From Elusimicrobiota bacterium (lineage in GTDB: Bacteria > Elusimicrobiota > Elusimicrobia > UBA1565): 12,446 nt of DNA. The notes under the pieces were generated by a model. It did not search any database, was not told where the DNA came from, and saw only the letters and a list, made by a program, of their open reading frames with translations. The stretch covers positions 1 to 12,446 of the forward strand of contig JBDRPD010000070.1 in NCBI GenBank assembly GCA_043827405.1. The letters run 5' to 3'. Of the stretch, positions 151-12,213 are shown in pieces (position 1 is the first letter of the stretch; each line of letters opens with the position of its first letter). The position numbers were made by a program, and so were the translations under genes.

Positions 151-939
151 TCAAGGCCCCCGCAGAGTCACAACGGTATGGCGGCGATCCTTAGCGCGCG
201 CGCGCAGGATATAGCCGTCATCGATCACCGCAAACACGAAACCATCGGTATGAAAAATCTTTTCCATCGCTCCGCGAAATTTTGTCACATCGCCGCTGGT
301 CTTGGCGAGCTCCACCAGATCGTCCGTATACGCGCCGTGTTCGACTTTATACGCCTCCTCGACCGCCGCCAGCACCTTAAGCCCTTCGCGCGCCTTCGCG
401 ACCGCTGCGCGGTCCTGCGGCGACGGCTGCTTGAAGCTTAACCACACATTGGAAACAATGATCAGCCCCAGCACCATGAAGGATAAGAAGGCCGAAGCCA
501 GCGCGACCGCGGGAGGCTTCGGCTCGACCTCGATGACAACGCTTCCGGACAGCAGATCATGCCAGGTCCGCGAATCCCGGTCGAACAGGCTCCACAGGAA
601 CCCCAGATTCAGCAGCGGGGTGCTCACCAGATAGCCGCCGGCGCGCAGCAAACTTCGGCCGATACCGAGCCCTCCGCCGTCGCGTCTTACGACCCGAATG
701 CCGAACAGGCGCTTGCCGATCGTCCCGCCGGAAATATTGCCAATGACCTGGTAGGCGATGTAGAGGACCAGCCATGCCGCAAAGACCTGCCGCCACATTG
801 CTTCCGTATTCGACAGGAGGCCGAGCCGAACGATGAGGACGTACAGGCTCAAATAATAGCCGACGACAAACGGCACGAAGTCCAGAACAAAAGCCAGAAA
901 ACGGTCGGTGATCTTCGCTGGCTGAAGACCCTCTTGCAT
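151..939 (-). CDS. RDD family membrane protein with C-terminal type IV pilin-like domain
   Basis: RDD hallmarks: DRFLAFVLD, GGTIGKRLFGIRVV, SLLR, RTWHDLLSGSVV, with TM helices. A further TM helix is followed by AREGLKVLAAVEEAYKVEHGAYTDDLVEL, which resembles the pilin alpha1-C segment. Confidence 0.9.
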   Translation of the reverse strand: MQEGLQPAKITDRFLAFVLDFVPFVVGYYLSLYVLIVRLGLLSNTEAMWRQVFAAWLVLYIAYQVIGNISGGTIGKRLFGIRVVRRDGGGLGIGRSLLRAGGYLVSTPLLNLGFLWSLFDRDSRTWHDLLSGSVVIEVEPKPPAVALASAFLSFMVLGLIIVSNVWLSFKQPSPQDRAAVAKAREGLKVLAAVEEAYKVEHGAYTDDLVELAKTSGDVTKFRGAMEKIFHTDGFVFAVIDDGYILRARAKDRRHTVVTLRGP

Positions 940-951
940 AGGCGAATAATA

Positions 952-3291
952 CTAATTTTGCGGGAGGCTGCTTTTGTTCAGACGCCAGCGGAGATAGAGG
1001 TAGAAGGCGCCGAGGGGGATCATGCCCCAAGCGAGATAGAGGAACGGTGCGAAGCCCGCGACGTTCTGAAACAGCGCCTTGAGCCCCAGCAGGCCCAGCG
1101 TGCTGACGAGCATCGATGCCGAGCCGAAAAAGCCCATGGCATCCGGCATATTGTCGGCCTCGACGCCGTTTTCATCCGTTGCGGGAACCCGAGACTGGAA
1201 GAAGCTGCGGAGCTTGAGCACCGAAATGACTTGGGCGATACCGAAGAATATCAGCGCCGCGGCCTGCACCGTCAAGCCGCTCGCCCAGGAAAGGAAGGAA
1301 GGCAAAGCCACCATCTGCCCCAGAGTCGCCAGGGGGAAGGCGAGCGGCACCAGCATCGAAAGTCCCGCGGCACCCAAGAGCAGCCAAGTCAGCATCGACT
1401 TGCGCAGCTTCTCATTCTGCCAGGGCGTGATTTCTTTTGCCCAATCCGCGTCGGAAATCTTGCCGCGATTGGCCTCGGCCTCGGCGCGCATCTTCCCCAT
1501 ACTGCGCTTATTGCGCCACTGCTCCCACATCAGAAGCAGTCCGCCGAACAGGCCGCCCATGCTGTAAAGTCCGGTCAGCCAGCCCTGCACCGAGGCGGCC
1601 AGCTCCGGCGTCGGCATCAGGCGCAGCCCGAAGGCCGGAGCGAGCATGGTGTAAAGGAGGGGATTGATCAAGACATACATCGTATAGGCGAGAAACGAAT
1701 AACGCAGAGGCTTGTTCTGCCAAACCAGCTTCGCGCCGTATGCCAGCTTGCCGAAAAAGCCTCTTTCCGCGCCGGCCTTCTTCGTAAGCTCGAGCGCGCG
1801 CAGCTGCTCAAGCCGCTTGGGAATACGCAGCGTCATAAACACGATCACCAAGCTGACGCCCATCGCCACCGGGAAGGCGATCAGCGCCGGCAGGAACCCC
1901 ATGCTGGCGACAATCGAGCCGGTAAGGATCGGGGTAACAATGGCCGCCATTTCGAGGATCGTCTGCTGCCAGGTCCAGAACTTCTCGAGCTTAGCGGTTT
2001 CGCGGCCCACGATGGCGGGGGGGATGCTCTCCAGCGCGGTCAGGGAAATACCCGCCAGAACACCGTTGATAGCGTAAAAGCCGCCCATCATCAGGAGGGA
2101 CATATTGCCGGTCGCCAGCAGTCCCGCCAGGAGAGAGATCGATACTAGCCGAACCGTATCCGCTCCGAGATAGGTATTCTTCAAGCTGAAGCGTCTAACG
2201 GCGAGCGGTCCGAGCTGTCGGCCGATGATCGAAGCGATCGACGAGACAATCGCCAGCTGCGCGACGGCGGTAAAATCCCCGAACGTCTTTTGAATCAAGG
2301 AGGGCATCGCGGCGCCCAGCGACTCGATTCCGATCTGCGCCACCACCAAAGACGCGATCAGCATGACGGCGACTTTACCGAGCCCCAGCCAGGCGCCCTT
2401 CTCCTTGTCTGCGGCACCGGGGGTCTTCGCCTTGGCTTGAACGGCCTGCGCGGCGATACCGGTAACTTCCGCGCCGAAATCTTCAGGCTTAAACAGCCCG
2501 CCGTCCCCGGTCTTCATATGCCCCAAGCGCCCGACTCCTGAATACCGTGGTTCGACCTCAACGCGCATGTCCGCCGCGCCGCGGCGGGCTTTGAGCGCCA
2601 AAGGAGTCGGAGCTGCGAGCTTCTTCAGGCCCGGGACACGAGACAGAAAGGGGAATGTCCTTCCGGACACCGGCATCGCGGCATAGCGGCTCGCGGAGCC
2701 CGGCGTTTGCGCATGCTGCGGGACGAAGTCTTCATCGCTGATAGACCGGTTCTTAAACGCCGAGCGCAGTTCCTTAAACCGCAGGCCGAGCGTATTGGAT
2801 CGCGAACGGACCGACTGCAGGCTGTCCGGGGTCTCCTCTATTAGCGACTGGGTATCTTCCGGGGTGGAGCGACGAATGCGTCCGGGCCGAACCTTGATGC
2901 CCGCTGACGGATCGTCCCCGCCCGGGATGGTCCGCGGAGTCCTGCCCGCGGGCAGCGGAGTCGCGCCCGGCTGAATAGTGGAAAGCGGAAGCGACAGCGA
3001 CAGCGGACTATTGGGGGCGACGACCGGATTAGCGACCGTCGCCAACGAACCGCCCAAGGGAATCACACCCGACATGCCCAAGGCATTCATCGGCATCCGC
3101 AAACCGGAGGAAATCCCGGCACCTGCGGCGCCCGCGGCGTTCCCGCCTACCGGCACCACGACCTTGACCGGCGCCACGCCCATGGCGGCCAAGGCCTCAT
3201 ATGCGCCGAGGCCCGGCGCGCCCAAAATCAGCGCCGCTGCGACATTAATCGCCAGCCCTTTTTTGAGCATCGGGACATACCTTGCGCGCAT
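952..3291 (-). CDS. MFS transporter (DHA3/EntS/MefA-like appearance) with about 300-aa N-terminal extension; start may be ATG at 3270
   Basis: Residues ~301-779 hold about 12 hydrophobic segments, a degenerate motif A (GPLAVRRFSLK), ESIPPAIVG, and a central loop followed by GAKLVWQNKPLR. Residues 1-300 are a signal-like segment plus Pro/Gly/Ser/Ala-rich sequence. An SD-like AAGGT lies 8 nt before the ATG at 3270 (MLKKGL). Confidence 0.85.
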   Translation of the reverse strand: MRARYVPMLKKGLAINVAAALILGAPGLGAYEALAAMGVAPVKVVVPVGGNAAGAAGAGISSGLRMPMNALGMSGVIPLGGSLATVANPVVAPNSPLSLSLPLSTIQPGATPLPAGRTPRTIPGGDDPSAGIKVRPGRIRRSTPEDTQSLIEETPDSLQSVRSRSNTLGLRFKELRSAFKNRSISDEDFVPQHAQTPGSASRYAAMPVSGRTFPFLSRVPGLKKLAAPTPLALKARRGAADMRVEVEPRYSGVGRLGHMKTGDGGLFKPEDFGAEVTGIAAQAVQAKAKTPGAADKEKGAWLGLGKVAVMLIASLVVAQIGIESLGAAMPSLIQKTFGDFTAVAQLAIVSSIASIIGRQLGPLAVRRFSLKNTYLGADTVRLVSISLLAGLLATGNMSLLMMGGFYAINGVLAGISLTALESIPPAIVGRETAKLEKFWTWQQTILEMAAIVTPILTGSIVASMGFLPALIAFPVAMGVSLVIVFMTLRIPKRLEQLRALELTKKAGAERGFFGKLAYGAKLVWQNKPLRYSFLAYTMYVLINPLLYTMLAPAFGLRLMPTPELAASVQGWLTGLYSMGGLFGGLLLMWEQWRNKRSMGKMRAEAEANRGKISDADWAKEITPWQNEKLRKSMLTWLLLGAAGLSMLVPLAFPLATLGQMVALPSFLSWASGLTVQAAALIFFGIAQVISVLKLRSFFQSRVPATDENGVEADNMPDAMGFFGSASMLVSTLGLLGLKALFQNVAGFAPFLYLAWGMIPLGAFYLYLRWRLNKSSLPQN

Positions 3292-3476
3292 TGTAAGGAT
3301 ATTTTATGCCTAAAGCCCTTCTCAGGAGCAGGGCCATACGGGCAATCAAACCCGGATATGCGGCCTAAAAACTTTCTAGGTCCTATTGCCTGCCTCTCAA
3401 ATGACCCGGTGCGCGACGCCCACGTCCGCGTGGCGGTTTATTAAATTTACCTGAAAAAACCACAAGTTGCAGGTGG

Positions 3477-3533: not shown

Positions 3534-4187
3534 ATGAAATACGTCATGATGATCGGCGGCTTATGCATGCTGGGCTTTATCGGCGTAATGCTCATGACGT
3601 CTTCCGCGAAAAAGAAACCGCAGCAGGAAGCATCGACAGAGCTGCCCAATCCCGACATGGATGCTACGGCACCACCCCGGGTTATCATTGAAAAAGAGCC
3701 GCAGCGGCTCAAGCTTGACGGAGAATCCCTCCAGCGCGTACGCAACGCAACGCGTGATACCGACCCCAAGGTACGCTGGGATGCCGCACGCCTGCTCGTC
3801 GCGATCGAGGACGACTACGCGTCCGATGCCCTATTCGGCATCCTGCACCGCGACTCCTCTCCGGATAACCGGCGCAAAGCGCTGTCGCTGCTCGCCGACT
3901 ATGACGAACCCGTAGTCACGCGCAACATCATCCGCGCACTGCGCGACACGAACGACGACGTACGCATCGACGCGCTGAGCGCTTTGGGACAGATCGGCGA
4001 TTACCAGGCGGCTCACCCCATTGGACAAATGATGCACGATGCGAACGAACGCGTCCGCTTAAAGGCGATCAATACGCTGGACTTGCTGGAGAAACGGCGC
4101 AACAAGGAAATTTCGCAAGCCAAGACGCAGCACGCGGAGCAGATGCGTCAGTGGGAAGAGCAGGTCAAGCAGCAAAAACAACGGTAG
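3534..4187 (+). CDS. Membrane-anchored HEAT-repeat (HEAT_2/PBS-lyase-like) protein
   Basis: N-terminal hydrophobic anchor (YVMMIGGLCMLGFIGVMLM) and Pro-rich linker. Repeats DTDPKVRWDAARLL, DSSPDNRRKALSLL, DTNDDVRIDALSALGQIGD, DANERVRLKAINTL. Q/E/K-rich C-terminal helix. Confidence 0.9.
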   Translation: MKYVMMIGGLCMLGFIGVMLMTSSAKKKPQQEASTELPNPDMDATAPPRVIIEKEPQRLKLDGESLQRVRNATRDTDPKVRWDAARLLVAIEDDYASDALFGILHRDSSPDNRRKALSLLADYDEPVVTRNIIRALRDTNDDVRIDALSALGQIGDYQAAHPIGQMMHDANERVRLKAINTLDLLEKRRNKEISQAKTQHAEQMRQWEEQVKQQKQR

Positions 4188-4197
4188 GAGCGCCTCA

Positions 4198-4869
4198 ATG
4201 TATCGCATTCTCCTCGTCTGCGTTCTACTCGGCGGCATGGGATATCTCTACATGCGGAAATCACCCGCCGCGACCGAGCAGGAACTGCCCGCGCCGCCGC
4301 CGCTGCCGCCCGCTCTCCAGCACATGCCGCCGCAGGTGCTCGGGGAAGCGCAGATCGAGAAGATCCGCTTGGCGACGCTGGACGGCGATCCCCAAGTGCG
4401 CTGGGCGGCCATCGATCTGCTGTATCGAATCCGCGATCCTCGGGCCTACGAAATCCTAAAGAAAGCCCTCGTGATCGACTCGGAGTCCTCCGTGCGCCAG
4501 AAATCTCTCGATATCATCAAGAACGTGGACAGCCCCAACCGGGTGAAAGTGCTGATCAGCGCGCTCAACGACACCGAACGCAATATCCGCATCGCCGCGC
4601 TGGTGGCGCTCGGAGAGATCGGCGATCCGAACTCGACCGCGGCGATCGTCGAAATCCTGCGCGATCCCGATCCCATCGTGCGCCGGCAGGCCATCAATAC
4701 GCTGGGGATCATCCAGACCAAGCAGGATCTCGAGCACAGCAGGATGCAGGACAAAATACGTGAACAATACGAGAAGGAGCTTGCCGAACACAACCGTCAG
4801 GCAGGTGGGCTAACGTCGCCCATCAAGCACTCCGAAAAGGACCTTCTCGAAAAAAACAGGGTGGAATAG
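4198..4869 (+). CDS. Membrane-anchored HEAT-repeat protein, paralog of the upstream gene
   Basis: SD AGGAG. N-terminal anchor (ILLVCVLLGGMGYLYM) and PAPPPLPP linker. Repeats DGDPQVRWAAIDLL, DSESSVRQKSL, DTERNIRIAALVALGEIGD, DPDPIVRRQAINTLG. Confidence 0.9.
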   Translation: MYRILLVCVLLGGMGYLYMRKSPAATEQELPAPPPLPPALQHMPPQVLGEAQIEKIRLATLDGDPQVRWAAIDLLYRIRDPRAYEILKKALVIDSESSVRQKSLDIIKNVDSPNRVKVLISALNDTERNIRIAALVALGEIGDPNSTAAIVEILRDPDPIVRRQAINTLGIIQTKQDLEHSRMQDKIREQYEKELAEHNRQAGGLTSPIKHSEKDLLEKNRVE

Positions 4870-4871
4870 CG

Positions 4872-5861
4872 ATGTCGACAGATATCCGAGAGATCAACAG
4901 CAAAGTCCAAGCCGAAAGCCTCTTCGTCGCCGAACTGAAGAAGGAACTTTCCGCCGTTATCGTCGGGCAAGAGGAGATGATCGACCGACTGCTGGTCGCT
5001 CTGCTCGCGAAAGGGCATGTGCTTATCGAAGGCGTTCCCGGACTGGCGAAAACTCTAACGATCAGCACTCTGGCTTCGACGATCACCGCGCAGTTCCTCC
5101 GCATCCAGTTCACTCCGGACCTGCTCCCGGCCGATCTGACCGGAACCATGGTATTCAATCCCAAGGACAATGTTTACAGCGTGCGCAAAGGGCCGATCTT
5201 CTCCAACCTCATCCTCGCCGACGAGATCAACCGGGCGCCCGCCAAGGTGCAGAGCGCCCTGCTGGAAGCGATGCAGGAGGGCCAGGTCTCGATCGGAGGA
5301 AAATCCTATCCTCTGCCGGAGCTGTTTATGGTTCTGGCGACGCAGAACCCGATCGAGCAGGAGGGGACCTATCCGCTGCCGGAAGCTCAAGTTGACCGCT
5401 TTATGCTCAAGCTCCTGGTGGACTACCCGGGACGCGACGACGAACGCATTATCCTTGAACGCATGACCAATCCGAACCCGCCAAGCGCGCGCCAGGTGGT
5501 CACGCAGAAGCAGCTGTTCTCCGCCCGGCAGATCGTAGAGCATATTTATGTCGACGACAAGGTCAAAAACTATATCCTCGACATAGTCTTCGCTACGCGT
5601 GACCCGCAGAAATTCGGACTCGAGCGCCTGAAATCGCTGATCCGCTACGGCGCCAGCCCCCGCGCGACCATCAACCTGACCCGCGCATCCAAGGCCTTTG
5701 CGTTTCTCAACGGCCGCGGTTTCGTCACCCCGGAGGACGTCAAGTCCATCGGCCCGGACGTCCTGCGCCACCGCATCCTCACCAGCTATGAGGCCGAAGC
5801 GGAGAGCGTAACACCCGAGGACATCATGCGCAGCCTGTTTGAAACGATCGAAGTTCCCTGA
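4872..5861 (+). CDS. moxR: MoxR-family AAA+ ATPase (MoxR proper subfamily)
   Basis: Walker A GVPGLAKT, RIQFTPDLLPADLTG, Walker B LADEINRAPAKVQSALLEAMQE, ATQNPIEQEGTYPLPEAQVDRF, and lid GASPRA...VLRHR. Confidence 0.97.
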   Translation: MSTDIREINSKVQAESLFVAELKKELSAVIVGQEEMIDRLLVALLAKGHVLIEGVPGLAKTLTISTLASTITAQFLRIQFTPDLLPADLTGTMVFNPKDNVYSVRKGPIFSNLILADEINRAPAKVQSALLEAMQEGQVSIGGKSYPLPELFMVLATQNPIEQEGTYPLPEAQVDRFMLKLLVDYPGRDDERIILERMTNPNPPSARQVVTQKQLFSARQIVEHIYVDDKVKNYILDIVFATRDPQKFGLERLKSLIRYGASPRATINLTRASKAFAFLNGRGFVTPEDVKSIGPDVLRHRILTSYEAEAESVTPEDIMRSLFETIEVP

Positions 5862-5869
5862 CCGAGGTC

Positions 5870-6760
5870 ATGCTTCCCAAAGAAATCCTAGCACAGGTCC
5901 GGCGAATCGAGATCCAAACCGGCCGGTTGGTCAACGAGACGTTCGCGGGAAAATACCTGAGCGCCTTCAAGGGCCGCGGCATGGAGTTCGCCCAGGTACG
6001 AGAGTATACGCCCGGGGACGACATCCGCACGATCGACTGGAACGTAACGGCGCGCTTCGGCAAGCCCTTCATCCGGGAATATCAGGAAGAGCGGGAGCTC
6101 ACCGTCATCCTGGCCTGCGACCTATCGGGATCCCAGTTCTTCGGCTCGTTCGATAAACTGAAGCGCGAGATCGCCGCCGAACTCTCCGCCCTTCTTGCCT
6201 TTTCCGCGCTGCGGAACAACGACAAGGTAGGCCTTTTCCTCTTCACCGACCGCATCGAGCATTTCATCCCGCCGCGCAAAGGCCACCGGCACGCGCTGAC
6301 CATCATCCGGGATGTCCTGGCCTACCAGCCTCGCAACCGCGGCACGAATATCGCATCAAGCCTGGACGCCCTCAACCGCATGCTCCAGCGCCGCTGCATC
6401 GTCCTCTTGGTCTCGGATTTTCAGGATGCGGGCTATGAGAAAAGTCTCCGCCACACCGCACGCAAGCACGATCTCATCCCCATTGTCATCGAAGACCCCC
6501 GTGAAGAGAACCTGCCGGACCTGCCGGCCTATCTTGAGCTGGAGGATCCCGAGAGCGGAGCACGGACCCTTATCAGCGGGATGTCCCGCCGATCGCGCGA
6601 GGAGATCGCTGACCGGCGGCGGCGGGCACGCACCGAGCTTAATGCGCTTTTCAGCTCGGCGGGTTTGGATCATATCTCCATACGCACCGACCGGCCGTAT
6701 ATTGATCCGATTGTACGATTCTTCCGCGAACGTTCGAGGAGGGTCCTACGCTCGCGCTAA
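5870..6760 (+). CDS. DUF58 domain-containing protein (VWA-like MoxR partner)
   Basis: FKGRGMEFAQVREYTPGDDIRTIDWNVTAR, REYQEERE, MIDAS-like DLSGS, GTN and VSDF motifs. Canonical position right after moxR. Confidence 0.95.
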   Translation: MLPKEILAQVRRIEIQTGRLVNETFAGKYLSAFKGRGMEFAQVREYTPGDDIRTIDWNVTARFGKPFIREYQEERELTVILACDLSGSQFFGSFDKLKREIAAELSALLAFSALRNNDKVGLFLFTDRIEHFIPPRKGHRHALTIIRDVLAYQPRNRGTNIASSLDALNRMLQRRCIVLLVSDFQDAGYEKSLRHTARKHDLIPIVIEDPREENLPDLPAYLELEDPESGARTLISGMSRRSREEIADRRRRARTELNALFSSAGLDHISIRTDRPYIDPIVRFFRERSRRVLRSR

Positions 6761-6789
6761 GACTGCTGCTTATACCGCCGGCCGTCCTC

Positions 6790-7719
6790 ATGCTCGCCGC
6801 GCCCGCCCGCGGAGCGCAGCCGGAGGACGCCGTCATACGGCTTGAAGCCGTGGAAACTACGGCCCTTATCGGAAGTCCCTTCGAGATCACGGGCGAGGCG
6901 GACCTGCCGCAAAGCTACGCGCTCAGACCGCCGGAAACTGACGCCCAGCGCGGGGAGTTTGAGATCCTTTCCGTCCAATTCGGCGCTCCCGTATCGGCGG
7001 ACGGGCGCAAGCGCCTGCCAATCCGCATCCGCGCCGCCGGTTTCGCCCTGGGCGAGCAGGAGGTCCCGGCGATGGAATGGCGGCTGCTCGGACCGGACGG
7101 CTCGGTCGCCGCGCTCCAAGGCCCTCCCGTCCGGATTACGATCATCCCGCCAAAACCCGGCGAACACGACACCGGAGACATTCGGGATATTAAAGGTCCG
7201 TTCGCTCCGCCGTTATGGCCCTGGATACTGCTTTCGGTCCTGCTGCTGCTTGCCGCCGTCGCCTGCCTCTACTACGCGTTTTGGCGGAAGCCGCGGGCAG
7301 AACGGGGAGGGGAGAAGAGCGCACCCGAAGACGCCCGCACCTTCGAGGAGATCGCCCTCGACGAGATCGAAGCCCTGCCCGGCCTGGGACTGCCCACAAA
7401 AGAGTTTTATGACCGCCTCTCAGACATCGTACGGCTGTATCTCAAACGCCGCTGTGGAATTACCGCGCTGCAGATGACGAGCTGCGATCTCATGCGGGAG
7501 ACGCGTCGCGCGAAGCTCGACGATAAGGCGCGCTCACTAATGAAGCTGCTGCTTGACCATTGCGATCTTGCCAAGTTCGCCCGCCACCAGCCCCAAGAGA
7601 GCCAATTCCCGGCCGACTGCGTAACCGCCAAAGATATCATCGGCATCCTGAGTCCCGGCAAGCGGGAAGCCGGAGCAGTGCGCGACCTCGCCGCGGGGCC
7701 GAGGGGAGAACGGCCTTGA
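6790..7719 (+). CDS. Bat-operon accessory membrane protein (exported Ig-like domain, DIRDIK motif, TM helix, helical C-terminal domain; DUF4381-like); true start probably upstream near 6748-6763
   Basis: DIRDIKGP, then TM WPWILLSVLLLLAAVACLYYAFW, then KEFYDRLSDIVRLYL...ALQMTS...DLAKFA, typical of the gene found between DUF58 and batA. In-frame upstream codons extend a hydrophobic signal peptide. Confidence 0.85.
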   Translation: MLAAPARGAQPEDAVIRLEAVETTALIGSPFEITGEADLPQSYALRPPETDAQRGEFEILSVQFGAPVSADGRKRLPIRIRAAGFALGEQEVPAMEWRLLGPDGSVAALQGPPVRITIIPPKPGEHDTGDIRDIKGPFAPPLWPWILLSVLLLLAAVACLYYAFWRKPRAERGGEKSAPEDARTFEEIALDEIEALPGLGLPTKEFYDRLSDIVRLYLKRRCGITALQMTSCDLMRETRRAKLDDKARSLMKLLLDHCDLAKFARHQPQESQFPADCVTAKDIIGILSPGKREAGAVRDLAAGPRGERP

Positions 7720-8711
7720 GGTTTCACAGCCCTGGGTGGCTTATCATTCTCCTGCCGGCCGCCGCCGCCATTGCCCACAGCTGGCTGCGCCTGGAAAAGC
7801 GCCGCGCCGCCATGCTCTATCCCGGCTCCGCAACACTGGCGGACCTCACCCCGAAAATCGGAGTATTTTGGGTGCGGCGCCTGCCCGCGATCCTGAAGTC
7901 GGCCGCACTGATCCTCGCGATAGCCGCCCTCGCTCGGCCGCAGACAGTCTTGCGCCATTCCGCGGGACTAACTGAAGGCATCGACATACTGCTCGTCATG
8001 GACACGTCGATGAGCATGCTGGCCGAGGATTTTGCGCCGCACAACCGGATTGACGCCGCCGTGGAGGCGGCCCGGGACTTCATCCGCCGCCGGACTTCCG
8101 ATCGCATCGGCCTGCTGGTATTCGGCAGCGCCCCATTGCTCTCGTCGCCGCTTACCCTCGACCATGCCGCGCTTCTCGAGTTTCTCGACGACGTCCAGCC
8201 CGGGATGGTCGACCAGAAAGGAACGGCCATCGGCGACGGGATCGCCTCCGGCGTAAACCATCTAAAGGAAACGGAATCCAAAAGCAAGGTCATGATCCTA
8301 CTGACCGACGGCAGCAGCAACACCGGACTACTGGACCCCGTAACCGCCGCCCAGCTCGCCCAAACCTTCGGCATCAAGGTCTACACGATCGGGACAGGAA
8401 AGCGCGGCGTCGCGTACGCCACAATCAACCATCCGGTCTACGGTACACAGCGCTTCATAATCAACGATGATCTCGATGAGGACACGCTGCTGAAGGTCGC
8501 GGCGGAGACTGATGGGAAGTACTATCGCGCGACCAACACGACGCAGCTCAAGGAAATCTACGAAGAGATCAACCGCCTGGAAAAGCACCGTTTTGAAAAA
8601 CCGGAGTTTCTGTCCTACCACGACCACTACATCATACTGCTGATCCCAGCGGCGCTGCTCCTGGCGAGCGGACTAATCCTCTCACGAACGCTGCTGCTGA
8701 GAATCCCATAA
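7716..8711 (+). CDS. batA: BatA-like VWA domain membrane protein (331 aa)
   Basis: Start reassigned from the ORF track (7560) to TTG 7716, which has SD GAGGGGAG, a TTGA overlap with the upstream stop, and a typical N-terminus MRFHSPGWL. Also ALARPQ, MIDAS DTSMS, DRIGLLVF, PLTLD, GTAIGDG, LLTDG, KVYTIGTG, LDEDTL..VA..TDGKYYRA. Confidence 0.93.
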   Translation: MRFHSPGWLIILLPAAAAIAHSWLRLEKRRAAMLYPGSATLADLTPKIGVFWVRRLPAILKSAALILAIAALARPQTVLRHSAGLTEGIDILLVMDTSMSMLAEDFAPHNRIDAAVEAARDFIRRRTSDRIGLLVFGSAPLLSSPLTLDHAALLEFLDDVQPGMVDQKGTAIGDGIASGVNHLKETESKSKVMILLTDGSSNTGLLDPVTAAQLAQTFGIKVYTIGTGKRGVAYATINHPVYGTQRFIINDDLDEDTLLKVAAETDGKYYRATNTTQLKEIYEEINRLEKHRFEKPEFLSYHDHYIILLIPAALLLASGLILSRTLLLRIP

Positions 8712-10396
8712 TGGAAATTTTTCGCGATCCCGGCTACATGATATGGGCCCTGGCTGCGGCCGCGGCGGCCTATCTATTCGGCCGCTGGGCCGCCGCACGG
8801 CAGAATGCGATTACCGCGCGCTTCGTCGGCGCCAGCCTGCTCCATCATCTGGTCCCGCAGGAAGCGGCCGCCGCCCGCAAGAAGAGCTACCTCCTTAGCT
8901 CAACAGCGCTCGTCTTGATGTTGGCCGCGCTGGCCGGACCGCAATGGGGAGTCGAACTCATTACCGCCCGGACCAAAGGAACACAGATCATGATTGCGGT
9001 CGACACCTCCATTTCGATGCGGGCGGAAGATCTGAAGCCCAACCGAATGCAGAAAGCTAAGAGCGCGCTGACGCTGCTCATTGAAGGGTTGAAAGGCAAC
9101 CGGATCGGCTTGATCGCTTTCGCCGGAGACGCCTTTATTCAGTGTCCCCTAACGACTGATACCGAGGCCGTCAAGTCCTTTCTCCGCCGGATGGAAGCGG
9201 GCATGGTGCCCAGCCCCGGCACAGCCTTGGGACGCGCGGTACAGCTCGCCGCGCGCTATCTCACGCGCTATCCCGGACATAAGGCCATCGTGCTCCTAAG
9301 CGACGGGGAGGATCACGAAGGAGAACCGCTGGCGCACGTTCAGGCGGCGGCAGAAGCCGGCATACACCTCTACATCATCGGCATGGGAACCCCCGAAGGC
9401 GCACCCATCCCCATCAAGAACGACCAGGGGAAAACGATCGGCTACAAGAAAGACGAAAAAGGCGAGACCGTGGTCAGCCGACTCGCAGAACAAAGCCTCA
9501 TCGACCTGGCAGCCGCCTCCACGGGCGCCTACTACCGCGCGACGCCGTTGGAAAATGAAGTGGGCAACATCGTCAAGCATATCGCTGACTTGGAAAAAGC
9601 CGACTTGGGAGCGGGCGCGCAGAACCGGTTCAAAAACCGCTACCAGTACCCGCTGGCGCTGGCGGTGCTGCTGCTGCTGCTGGAACTGCTGACCTCGGAA
9701 ACGAAGCCGCGCTCGCCTGCCAGCGCACCGCGCACCGCCGCCAAAGCCGGGGCGCTCGCCGCAGCGGTTTTGTTGGCCGCCGGATGCAGCCTTCCCTCCG
9801 ACGTAAAACTGCACCGGGGGAACAAGAAATACCGCGCAGAGAAGTATGAGGAGGCGCTGGCGAAGTACTCCCAAGCCGACCCCCGCGATGCGAAGACGCC
9901 GTTCAACGCCGGAGCGGCGATCTATAAAATGGACAACTTCACGGAAGCGCAGAAGATGTTCGAACAGCTGACGGACACCGTCAAAGTACCGGCGAAAATG
10001 GCGCCCCAGGCGTACTACAACCTCGGCAACACTCTCTACCGGCAGAAGGACCTCAAGGGTGCGGCCCAAGCCTATAAGCGCTGCCTGCTGCTCGACCCCA
10101 CGGATCAGGACTGCCGCCACAACCTGGTACTGGCGCTCCGACCGCCGCCGCCCAAAGACAAGAAGAACCAGCAGCAGAAACCCGACCAAAAGAAGAAGGA
10201 CGAAGAAAAAGACAAGAAAGACAACCCGGATCCGACGCAGCCTCAGCCCCAGCAGCAAGACCAAGGGCTGTCAAAAGAAGACGCGCAGCGGATTCTCCAG
10301 GCGCTCAAGGAAAAGGAGAAGGCCGCTCAGCAAACGCTGCCCAAGCGTCGTCTTGATGCGCAGCCGTCGCAAGGCAAAAAGGAGAAAGACTGGTGA
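8711..10396 (+). CDS. batB: BatB-like VWA protein fused to a BatC-like TPR domain and Q/K-rich tail
   Basis: ALAGPQWG, MIDAS DTSIS, NRIGLIAFAG, CPLTTD, GTALG, LSDGEDH, GTPEGAPIP, GETVVSRL. After two hydrophobic segments come TPRs (GNKKY, YYNLGNTLY, LDPTDQDCRHNL), a Q/K/D-rich linker, LSKEDAQRILQAL and terminal KDW. Confidence 0.93.
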   Translation: MEIFRDPGYMIWALAAAAAAYLFGRWAAARQNAITARFVGASLLHHLVPQEAAAARKKSYLLSSTALVLMLAALAGPQWGVELITARTKGTQIMIAVDTSISMRAEDLKPNRMQKAKSALTLLIEGLKGNRIGLIAFAGDAFIQCPLTTDTEAVKSFLRRMEAGMVPSPGTALGRAVQLAARYLTRYPGHKAIVLLSDGEDHEGEPLAHVQAAAEAGIHLYIIGMGTPEGAPIPIKNDQGKTIGYKKDEKGETVVSRLAEQSLIDLAAASTGAYYRATPLENEVGNIVKHIADLEKADLGAGAQNRFKNRYQYPLALAVLLLLLELLTSETKPRSPASAPRTAAKAGALAAAVLLAAGCSLPSDVKLHRGNKKYRAEKYEEALAKYSQADPRDAKTPFNAGAAIYKMDNFTEAQKMFEQLTDTVKVPAKMAPQAYYNLGNTLYRQKDLKGAAQAYKRCLLLDPTDQDCRHNLVLALRPPPPKDKKNQQQKPDQKKKDEEKDKKDNPDPTQPQPQQQDQGLSKEDAQRILQALKEKEKAAQQTLPKRRLDAQPSQGKKEKDW

Positions 10397-12213
10397 TGCG
10401 GATACTCGGTCCGCTGCTCCTGCTCTGCAGCGTCGGCGCTGCACCGGCCGCCGCGCTCACGATCCTGGCGCGCGTCAACAAAGACCGCGTCGCGCTCAAT
10501 GATCAGGTTTTGCTGACGGTCCAGATTCGGCTCGACCAGGGAGGGGCGCCCAAGCCGCAACTGCCCTCGATCCCCAATTTCAACATACACTCCGCCGGTA
10601 GTCGCACCAATATGCAGTTCATCAACGGCGTCGTTTCGAGTACCGTGGAGAGCGACTACGTACTGGTCCCTCGTTTCGTGGGCAACGCCGTCATTCCCCC
10701 GATTACCGTAACCCATAACGGAACCAGCGCGCGGACCAAACCCCTGACGATCCGCGTACTGCCCGCCGACACCGCCACACCGGCACCCGCGCCGGAGAGG
10801 CCCGCGCAGGAAACGGACCCCCGCGCCGCGCCGCGCCGCGACGAACAAGGACCGGACATGTTCATCACCGCCGAGGTGGACAAGAAAGATCCCTACGTCA
10901 ACGAACAGGTCATGATGACCGTGCGCTTCTATCTGGGGGTGCAGGCGCTCAGCGACTCCGAATATGAGTTCCCGGACACCCACGGCTTCGCCCGGGAGAA
11001 CCTCGGGACCTTGCCGCCGCGCAACGTCAGCAACCATAACCGGCACTATGTTCTGCACGAGATACGCACGGCCTTATTTCCCATCAACGCGGGAACGCTG
11101 CACGTCGGTCCGACCAAGATCACGGTCAAGGTGCAGGACCGCATCGACATCAATACCGAGGGACCTGATTTCTTCCGCATGTTCTTTTCCCAGCCATTGG
11201 TATCGGTAAAGAAAAAGACGATCCAGACCAAAGCGCTGAAGGTGAAGGCGCGAGCGCTCCCCAAAGACGGCAAGCCGCACCACTTCTCGGGGGCGGTCGG
11301 CACGTTCTCCATCCGCGCGGAAGTCGAGCCGTCAGCGGCCAAAGTCGGCGAAGCGGTAACCCTAACCGCGACCATCAAGGGACGAGGCAATATAAAAACG
11401 CTCGGCGACATCTCACTGCCGACGCTGGACGATTTCCGGGTGTACGAGACCGTGAGCTCGCTTAACATTGAAACCGACGTCACCGGGGTAAAGGGAGCGA
11501 AATCGTACAAAACAGTGCTGGTGCCCCGCGTCTCGGGAACGCTGACCATACCGCCGATCCCGTTCAGCTACTTCGACCCCGACAAGAAAGAATACGTCGC
11601 CCTGCAGACGCATTCGATCGACCTGCCGGTCAGCCCGGGCGACGCGGCGACGGCGCCAGTAGGCTACCAGGCTCAGGGCTCCGGGTCTCAGATCACGCGC
11701 ATCACCGCAGATATCCGGCACATCAAAAGCTCGCTGCACCAGCCGACATCGCTCCGGTTCGCCTCCGCGCTTACGGGGGCGGTCTGGCCGCACATGATCC
11801 CTTCCCTAATCTTCATCCTCTGCTCCGGCCGCAGCTTCTATCGAAACCGCCTGCTGCGCGATCCGGCGCGGCGCAGGTTTCGCGATGCCTTCGCACGCGC
11901 ACGCAAGCGCATCGCAAATGGCACCTCTTCGGGGGAGGCGCCCGCCCGTCTCGCCGAAGCCTTGACGGGCTACCTATCCGACAAGTTGGGCATTCCCGCC
12001 GCCGGACTCACCCAGCGCGAAGCCCAGCAGCGGCTGAAAGAACGATTCCCCAAGCTTCCCGAGGGCCACTTCAACCAGATCAAATTGCTATGGGAGGAAC
12101 TGGAAGTGATGCGCTTTGCCCCGCAGGACGGGCGAGATAACGATGCCTCACGCCGGCTGGAAAAAGAGGTTGAAGTCCTCCTCGAGGCGCTCGAGGAGGT
12201 CATCGGGAAATGA
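10393..12213 (+). CDS. batD: BatD family exported protein with C-terminal TM helix
   Basis: Signal peptide ending in AAA. NMQFING, G...IPPITV, VDKKDPYVNEQ, ALFP..GTL, FSGAVGTF, GRGNI, IPPIPFSYFDP..EY and DIRHIK motifs, then a TM helix. GTGA/TGATG overlap with the batB stop (start 10393 or 10396). Confidence 0.92.
   Translation: MMRILGPLLLLCSVGAAPAAALTILARVNKDRVALNDQVLLTVQIRLDQGGAPKPQLPSIPNFNIHSAGSRTNMQFINGVVSSTVESDYVLVPRFVGNAVIPPITVTHNGTSARTKPLTIRVLPADTATPAPAPERPAQETDPRAAPRRDEQGPDMFITAEVDKKDPYVNEQVMMTVRFYLGVQALSDSEYEFPDTHGFARENLGTLPPRNVSNHNRHYVLHEIRTALFPINAGTLHVGPTKITVKVQDRIDINTEGPDFFRMFFSQPLVSVKKKTIQTKALKVKARALPKDGKPHHFSGAVGTFSIRAEVEPSAAKVGEAVTLTATIKGRGNIKTLGDISLPTLDDFRVYETVSSLNIETDVTGVKGAKSYKTVLVPRVSGTLTIPPIPFSYFDPDKKEYVALQTHSIDLPVSPGDAATAPVGYQAQGSGSQITRITADIRHIKSSLHQPTSLRFASALTGAVWPHMIPSLIFILCSGRSFYRNRLLRDPARRRFRDAFARARKRIANGTSSGEAPARLAEALTGYLSDKLGIPAAGLTQREAQQRLKERFPKLPEGHFNQIKLLWEELEVMRFAPQDGRDNDASRRLEKEVEVLLEALEEVIGK

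Follow-up and report, generated by a model that had tools for sequence, protein, structure and literature searches.

How can a transporter whose charge distribution calls for a cytoplasmic N terminus carry what looks like a signal peptide at its front? This question is raised by the gene at positions 952–3291 (reverse strand) of a 12,446-nucleotide stretch of DNA from an Elusimicrobiota bacterium of the UBA1565 lineage, hereafter the window, which is contig C70 of a genome (G000) that is 98% complete. Translation of the open reading frame and comparison with Pfam identify its product as a leader-bearing transporter of the major facilitator superfamily (MFS) that is 779 aa long and contains no cysteine; a hexamer-based gene caller preferred this frame over a shadow open reading frame at positions 559–2148 of the forward strand. 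An earlier note on this DNA had described a signal-peptide-like leader and a disordered pro-region, had pointed to the resulting conflict with normal MFS topology, and had proposed a lineage-specific module that targets membrane-protein cargo. We find that the leader marks a genuine sorting class that is confined to one lineage, shares a regulatory motif, and has a candidate machine inherited along with it, and we tentatively suggest that members of this class are delivered into another cell.

The leader itself was apparent from sequence and hydropathy. By inspection, residues 1–35 (positions 3187–3291; this and all other features of the gene are on the reverse strand) comprise a basic n-region, a hydrophobic h-region (Kyte–Doolittle 19-mer value of 1.7), and the c-region PGLGAYEALA with the site A33-L34-A35 before A36. 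This segment is conserved in orthologs and has the features expected of a Sec signal cleaved by signal peptidase I (SPase I), namely a basic n-region, a hydrophobic h-region, and A-x-A at –3/–1, with a predicted cut after A35; among the 28 family members that could be parsed, 13 have Gln directly after A-x-A. Downstream, the leader profile places an uncharged Ala/Gly/Val-rich segment at residues 36–65 (positions 3097–3186; class consensus GAAGAA) and an L-x-S-x-L-P-type box at residues 79–86 (positions 3034–3057), which reads LGGSLATV here as compared with the class consensus LGSVLPSV; across 63 leaders, conservation of the Leu column of the box is at least 90%. A basic amphipathic island follows at residues 168–180 (positions 2752–2790; LGLRFKELRSAFK); it is conserved as LRaaFG in orthologs and is likely, as judged from its sequence, the counterpart of an F-D-G island found in other class members. 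The pro-region is, thus, of low complexity over approximately 265 residues, as the earlier note had it, but is not featureless. Gly, Ala, Pro, and Ser make up 51–55% of residues 36–135, residues 136–185 contain 16% Arg and 20% Lys plus Arg (K+R), and a crude count of disorder-promoting residue types gives 72% in residues 36–300 versus 54% in the MFS part. Residues 60–295 have no similarity above noise to other proteins of G000.

The remainder of the protein is an ordinary MFS fold. Residues 300–779 (positions 955–2394) contain 12 transmembrane (TM) helices according to Pfam, an AlphaFold model, and charge counts. The Pfam MFS_1 match (residues 313–733, E value 4e-4) scores 19.8 bits and is below the gathering score of 33.4, which five closer and farther paralogs pass. 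The model of residues 300–779 (pLDDT 93.9) matches the MFS structures PepTSt (5oxn), sialin (8u3d), and MdfA (4zp0) in Foldseek with an E value of 3e-7, a TM score of approximately 0.6, and identities of 12–16% to these top matches, and it displays the predicted 12-helix, two-bundle MFS fold.

We considered whether the leader could result from a mis-called start, because a true start near residue 240–300 would make it irrelevant. Homolog searches returned 61 and 71 proteins, and all taxon names shown were Elusimicrobiota except for one "bacterium". Among the 61 homologs, 41 have the leader in their first 80 residues. The first TM helix (TM1) of the query begins near residue 306; in the 50 homologs in which the TM1 motif could be parsed, it lies at a median residue of 268, its earliest occurrence is at residue 64 in a record marked partial, and no complete homolog begins at TM1. 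The extension is, therefore, part of the family, and a mis-called start is ruled out. Because orthologs have the same short extension and because TAAAAT, a candidate –10 element, lies at positions 3301–3306, 10 bases upstream of the ATG at position 3291, the sequence makes Met1 at 3291 the more likely start than Met8.

The topology conflict is also real. With helix limits taken from the model, loops on the N-terminal side contain 39 K+R versus three on the other side, and this bias is kept even in the long basic loop 8–9 of the query. Therefore, the end of the pro-region belongs on the cytoplasm-type face, and a normally working signal peptide would place it on the side opposite to that predicted from charge. 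An additional helix would restore normal topology; however, between the predicted cut and TM1 the best window scores 4.6 on a crude and simplified insertion scale on which lower values indicate stronger helices, as compared with 0.4–3.3 for the real helices. On the same scale, none of the 66 proteins that share the leader (see below) has a second TM helix scoring below 1.5 within residues 30–128, and their Ala/Gly/Val segment is too polar for a TM helix in all 66. A hairpin tether or other extra helix was rejected on these crude scores. Two other types of signal were also rejected: twin-arginine translocation (Tat) signals have the motif S/T-R-R-x-F-L-K, whereas the query reads LKKGLA and the 63 leaders have no invariant column (a TatC gene is present); and the protein has no Cys and, therefore, no lipobox for signal peptidase II.

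To define the proteins carrying this leader, we ran iterated profiles over the N termini of 3,445 of the 3,651 called genes of G000 and obtained 66 members after 11 other sequences (five drifting and six from the last round) had been left out by eye. When left out of the model, 64 of the 66 members score at least 13.7 bits, and the best decoys reach 13.3 bits among 3,445 reversed sequences and 10.0 bits among 5,756 internal ones. The leader has four parts: its signal peptide is followed by an uncharged segment of Ala/Gly/Val, then by the L-x-S-x-L-P box, and lastly by a basic island that often ends in F-D-G. The pattern [FYW][DE]G occurs within residues 100–220 in 27 of the 66 class members versus 156 of 1,882 called proteins of at least 300 aa. 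When 251 sampled genomes of the phylum were searched with a profile built from 63 leaders, it matched 23 of them, including 13 of the 14 other genomes of the order, which bears out the suspicion of lineage restriction, as well as families f8 and f11 and, weakly, six genomes in f4; it had no match in the 84 genomes of family f14 or in G076, the one leader-negative genome of the order. Against 1.8 billion representatives, the leader profile found 48 proteins, all of them matched at the N terminus; among the 10 of these clusters that were looked up, four had a taxon name and all four were Elusimicrobiota. Class genes are dispersed, only 11 of the 66 having another tagged gene within two genes. 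Separately, six secreted Cys-containing proteins of G000 (C54:33541, C54:39637, C54:105597, C76:2527, C83:191111, and C53:180339) have F-D-Q-G right after the signal peptide, and four of these genes are preceded by the upstream motif described below; this start is possibly a short form of the F-D-G island.

The class joins unrelated cargos, 44 of which match a Pfam family. Thirteen are peptidases; the proteases of the class include intramembrane types (M50, Rce1-like, and M48), subtilases, M3, M28, S41, trypsin, and LonB-type enzymes. Others are RNase II-type, endonuclease I, EEP, HD, and PLD enzymes, two ClpB-type unfoldases, two amylases, glycogen synthase, adenylate kinase, PPK2, Fic, a fusion of uridine kinase, cytidine deaminase, and PQ-loop, and MoxR together with a fused vWA giant. 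Transport is represented by seven MFS proteins, an SDF symporter, an ABC transporter, and MscS. The tagged adenylate kinase and both Clp proteins have kept intact Walker motifs, and the 44 annotated cargos include no translation, replication, or biosynthetic functions. Because at least 28 of the 66 cargos lack a predicted TM helix, the tag is not specific to membrane proteins; the earlier idea of a targeting module with unrelated cargos, transporters among them, survives in this broader form. In family f8, an MFS relative is embedded in an open frame of 4,241 aa that is matched by the leader as well (L075, G094:C60), which suggests that cargos can be fused into giant polyproteins.

A nutrient-capture role had been guessed from the transporter, and this digest-and-transport set has such a flavor combined with an extreme loss of cysteine. 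The leader class contains 0.27 Cys per 1,000 residues and its 25 multi-TM members contain 0.26, as compared with 6.07 in other signal-peptide proteins, 9.22 in other multi-TM proteins, and 12.21 in cytoplasmic proteins, these comparison classes being assigned by simple heuristics. Tagged MFS domains have no Cys in 2,870 residues versus 74 in 5,994 residues of the other MFS domains, and 20 tagged genes from 10 other genomes encode 12 Cys in 16,705 residues. Many cargos are second copies of housekeeping genes; twenty-one have a paralog in G000 that was not called as tagged, and the aligned parts contain 1 versus 46 Cys (two of 23 pairs had been dropped because the partner was itself a class member). 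The 16 Cys retained in the whole class include a pair in the deaminase that we take to be zinc ligands. Cysteine exclusion is described as an adaptation of exported proteins in a previous study (PMC2823432).

Tagged membrane proteins also have weaker helices. The median of the best helix per protein is 0.21 in 25 tagged versus –0.63 in 330 other multi-TM proteins (P = 1e-4 on the crude scale), and the difference holds within bins of helix number; the eight leader MFS proteins in this comparison include C39:130193, which has no Pfam hit and was assigned by hydropathy only. Two reports describe TM effectors from type III and IV secretion systems as lying just below the threshold for inner-membrane targeting (PMC6110835) and as passing via, and being extracted from, an inner-membrane intermediate (PMC11602083).

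Class genes additionally share a palindrome with the consensus GNCCYA-N8-TRGGNC that is clustered near –90 from the start. In the window, GGCCTA-N9-TAGGTC (positions 3362–3382) and an overlapping further half-site form a predicted, strand-neutral transcription factor operator of 14.1 bits at positions 3360–3385, the only match as compared with 0.01 expected from shuffles; because it lies between the promoters of the MFS gene and of a divergent HEAT-repeat gene, it could act on either. At least two half-sites (GNCCYA/TRGGNC) are present in 53 of the 66 class promoters versus 186 of 1,343 others, and spacings of 14 and 23 bases are favored. As these same genes had supplied the motif, it was put to three tests. 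In 60 splits into halves, the held-out half gave P values with a median of 1.7e-5 and a worst case of 0.56; across the genome, 86 of 101 strong sites are intergenic; and 14 of the 20 tagged genes of other genomes have a motif of at least 10 bits, a score reached by 11 of 400 shuffles and by 1 of 136 coding windows. In most genomes of the taxonomic class, exact motif counts are above those of the reversed control (55 vs. 7 in G000), but they are 0–2 in the ten genomes of other classes. In the closed 1.64-Mb leader-negative genome G066, 14 of 15 sites of the motif lie, as judged by eye, in front of a signal-peptide-like gene, which groups the leader class with the secretome. We predict from these sequences that the motif is the operator of a class-wide secretome regulator and that leader-class genes are likely coregulated. 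As a related observation, small gut-type genomes (L105–L124; G066, G070) have tandem palindromes (TRGGNC-N4-GNCCYA-N8-TRGGNC-N4-GNCCYA) before lineage-specific secreted proteins. A TAnnnT box is often seen by eye approximately 8–14 bases before the ATG of class genes, and its position suggests nearly leaderless mRNAs for many of them.

Following the motif led to a locus on C22 of G000, which encodes Gly-rich membrane proteins, a 3,018-aa ATPase giant, a Y1-transposase/helix-turn-helix (HTH) gene, and a 5,435-aa tagged giant. The 3,018-aa giant combines a leader-type signal peptide with superfamily 2 ATPase motifs (MKTGAGKT, GDEMD, FSGTA, GGRGLD, and QAQGR; ResIII E value 4e-5; Atlas DEAD-type 0.94) and may be SecA-like, judging from the form of these motifs. 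It is present in 17 of 38 genomes, which correspond exactly to families f1, f3, f8, and f11, that is, the strong leader families, and is missing from the leader-negative G076. The 5,435-aa giant carries both the leader and the upstream motif. Its residues 2590–3720 match SilC, CusC, TolC, and OprM (E value 2.5e-6; Z 12.6; Atlas 0.98) in a low-confidence model (pLDDT 51.5; Pfam OEP reaches an E value of only 0.16), a beta-rich region more weakly resembles part of the TamA/BamA barrel (Z of approximately 9), and TM helices and long helical stretches are also present. The model, thus, displays the putative alpha-barrel/beta-barrel repeat fold of TolC/OEP proteins, from which the giant would differ in being a single chain with a leader, TM helices, and, in this low-confidence model, the TamA/BamA-like region. 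PDB sequence searches with both giants were empty or gave chance matches. The TolC-like giant was found in 17 of the 251 genomes; it is kept near the HTH gene in 10 of 11 relatives examined, and the ATPase giant is kept there in nine of 11.

Several further genes of this kind deserve mention. The gene that fuses a Y1-transposase-like part to a DnaA-C HTH (L007:17883-18782; G000:C22:50879-51781) is kept beside the giant genes and has a single-copy ortholog with 47–72% identity in 12 relatives; it reads NYVH where we presume His-x-His, and its sequence looks domesticated. A role as the operator-binding factor is not supported, because the motif also occurs where a close ortholog of this gene is lacking, namely in G076, G066, and other f4 genomes. 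A second TolC-like giant paralog of 4,027 aa with a weak leader match lies at L034:3744-15824 (G000:C99:25740-37823). A family of 450–880-aa proteins at G000:C22:64493-73166 and C22:32945-34435 has a Lys/Glu-rich start, one TM helix, and a long Gly-rich body; four of them have a C-terminal "TPY" motif and a hydrophobic hairpin and are, by eye, reminiscent of pore-forming translocators.

The known secretion systems that were tested do not readily account for the class. A scan of G000 with one marker each, which leaves divergent or type IVB systems uncovered, found no match to FlhA or SctV of type III systems, VirB4, TssC/VipB, or a contractile sheath, and the system around the MFS protein fits no known secretion type among those tested. 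G000 has three secretins and 17 matches to PilB/PilT/GspE-type motor ATPases with E values below 1e-40. However, many leader-negative relatives have 7–10 pilus motor ATPases, and the expansion, which is general in environmental members of the phylum, therefore does not mark the system. Thus, of the suggested co-occurrence with secretion or pilus genes, the secretion half has a candidate in the giant genes, whereas pilus motors provide no clear marker. Glutaminyl cyclase, another rejected candidate, was found in one of five genomes, and G000 has no Glu_cyclase_2 match. By eye and with three Pfam markers, a Tad-type pilus cluster was seen at G000:C83:126899-134562 and type IV pilus/type II-like clusters at C66:112218-123252 and C34:32834-37741.

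Cytoplasm-type enzymes and N-in transporters that combine export signals, absence of Cys, and secretome-type regulation are explained most simply if they work in another cytoplasm. We, therefore, favor, as a tentative reading that could well be wrong, export of the leader class in two steps into the cytoplasm and membrane of a prey or host cell. The signal peptide would start export across the cell's own inner membrane, with weak TM helices avoiding permanent insertion or allowing extraction; the Ala/Gly segment, LP box, and basic island of the pro-region would then be read by the giant-gene machine, and the unfolded chain would cross the envelope. The MFS protein would insert from the target cytoplasm in its normal N-in orientation, which would remove the topology conflict, whereas the tagged enzymes would digest the contents of the target. 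The ATP that the tagged Clp, Lon, MoxR, and ABC proteins need would be renewed inside the target by tagged adenylate kinase and PPK2, and the products of digestion would leave the target cell through the transporters. It is possible, though we hold it with more doubt, that the clade has an as yet undescribed secretion system by which a second proteome is set up inside another cell, with one regulator, approximately 66 tagged proteins per genome, a SecA-like motor, a single-chain TolC/barrel conduit, MFS proteins as nutrient taps in the membrane of the victim, and kinases fueling proteases.

A number of observations weigh against delivery into another cell. We know of no case of a 12-helix transporter crossing SecYEG, and passage through the cell's own inner membrane is the weak link. 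The helix shift that would ease this passage is small, was measured on a simplified scale, and is inconsistent in four family pairs (SDF, ABC, a putative MEX1 pair, and M50); over 10 helices per MFS domain it vanishes when two partial housekeeping domains are kept (P = 0.23), and the query retains helices that score like ordinary TM helices (0.4 and 0.9). At least three of the 21 "untagged" paralogs are Cys-free and may be truncated class members. The 3,018-aa giant matched neither the Pfam SecA_DEAD model, which only canonical SecA matched, nor a PDB profile. The ATPase giant is missing from G030 and G070, in which the leader is matched weakly; a search for a TolC-like giant in G214, which is leader- and MFS-positive and 94% complete, gave none; and G076 has this giant without a leader match; moreover, the genomes are kin, so the co-occurrence of giants and leader may reflect a single inheritance. 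The upstream motif is below 10 bits in 28 of the 66 leader-class genes and is broader than the leader, being present across the taxonomic class. Finally, no prey is known, and a UBA1565 genome from an amoeba culture was read as that of an aerobic heterotroph with no mention of such a system (PMC9476967).

Among the alternatives, the one that survives best, unlikely but deserving serious weight, is an inside-out feeding compartment of the producer, such as an enlarged periplasm, a vacuole-like pocket, or a vesicle, which would receive prey contents and ATP or polyphosphate; here, class members are exported by Sec only and the MFS protein, inverted in the cell's own inner membrane, imports the products of digestion. 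Such an arrangement needs nothing beyond Sec, explains the signal peptides, the Cys loss, and the secretome-type regulation as well as the tagged adenylate kinase and PPK2, and would allow an inverted efflux-type MFS or ABC protein to import and the TolC-like giant to act as an inward duct. However, 39 K+R, including two 47-residue loops with 11 each, would have to cross against the positive-inside rule, and the charge bias is fully kept, even in loop 8–9; no such compartment is described for the clade in the papers found.

We are likewise doubtful that the leader is untranslocated and stays as an anchor, which would agree with the N-in charge bias, leave ATP-dependent cargo where ATP is, and require no new export step. 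The basic n-region predicts an N-in, C-out segment, and no class member has the second helix that would bring the chain back. The conserved A-x-A and the frequent Gln after it also speak against an uncleaved anchor, which in addition leaves unexplained both the 30-fold Cys loss in cytoplasm-type enzymes and the sharing of the upstream motif with ordinary secreted proteins.

Less probable still is that the cargo serves another cell type or a particle that the producer itself makes, such as a daughter cell, spore-like body, minicell, or vesicle with a cytoplasm of its own, which would be filled through the giant conduit. A parallel housekeeping-type set (ClpC/B, Lon, RNase R-type, glycogen synthase, MoxR-vWA, and MscS) fits a second cytoplasm whoever owns it and one shared regulator fits a developmental switch, but degradation and transport dominate the cargos, and biosynthetic, translation, and replication functions are missing from the annotated set. 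That the class is an artefact of mis-called starts or of an Ala/Gly composition shared with ordinary signal peptides is very improbable: the leader is of low complexity, profiles drifted in late rounds, and the leader has a G+C of 0.56 at codon position 2, against 0.45 genome-wide, but the left-out scores of 64 of the 66 members exceed those of both decoy sets, and membership predicts Cys loss and the upstream motif, features that were not used to define the class and that recur in other genomes.

Compared with known systems, the query shares with MFS proteins (PF07690) the 12-helix fold and the N-in charge bias and differs by a 300-residue tagged extension in all complete homologs, the lack of Cys, and the long basic loop 8–9. 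Leader-class signals share with Sec/SPase I signal peptides the n/h/c layout and A-x-A, with frequent Gln at +1, which corresponds to the Q-rule of Bacteroidetes, but add three conserved elements and cytoplasm-type or N-in cargo. A signal peptide followed by a second address is also found in PEXEL/PTEX export, plastid transit peptides, and the N22 segment of the curli subunit CsgA, and in PTEX an ATPase drives the second translocation; the likeness to these bipartite signals is an analogy only, and no sequence relation is expected. The TM effectors from type III and IV systems, as far as the reports cited above describe them, share a foreign-membrane destination and reduced hydrophobicity or an inner-membrane intermediate but use dedicated N- or C-terminal signals rather than a Sec-type peptide. 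The accessible parts of two preprints on giant proteins of Omnitrophota ("Archaeovorins") describe the same combination of a signal peptide, TM helices, and cytoplasm-type enzymes together with a divergent SecA-type DEAD domain and propose predation (bioRxiv 10.1101/2023.11.21.568195; 10.64898/2026.06.07.730766); there, the enzymes form one chain of 10,000–147,000 aa, whereas here they are encoded by approximately 66 separate genes with a common tag and motif, and those parts do not describe the leader. We found no publication on the leader or the motif in a search whose coverage of subscription papers and preprint supplements was incomplete.

If delivery into another cell is correct, whole polytopic transporters and ATP-driven machines would pass from cell to cell by a new route, and a widespread uncultured clade would be predatory or parasitic in its way of life. 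Under the alternatives as well, signal peptide and cargo type, which usually go together, are uncoupled in the sorting class that the tag defines. The finding may also bear on the Omnitrophota giants that carry cytoplasm-type enzymes behind signal peptides, and the tag, together with the upstream motif and both giant genes, provides concrete handles for finding the regulator and the switching condition.

The neighbors of the MFS gene in the window are as follows. Twelve bases downstream lies a gene for a Cys-free RDD-family membrane protein (positions 151–939, reverse strand), which is possibly cotranscribed with it. Divergent from the MFS gene are two tandem single-TM HEAT-repeat genes without Cys (positions 3534–4869, forward strand), which are the first in a MoxR operon that continues on the forward strand at positions 4872–12213 with genes for MoxR, DUF58, DUF4381, vWA (BatA-like), vWA-TPR, and BatD. 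A tagged twin that is 43% identical to the MoxR of the window is encoded at C91:25020-26885, and beside it lies a gene for a 3,386-aa tagged fusion of BatA, TPR, vWA, and DUF58.

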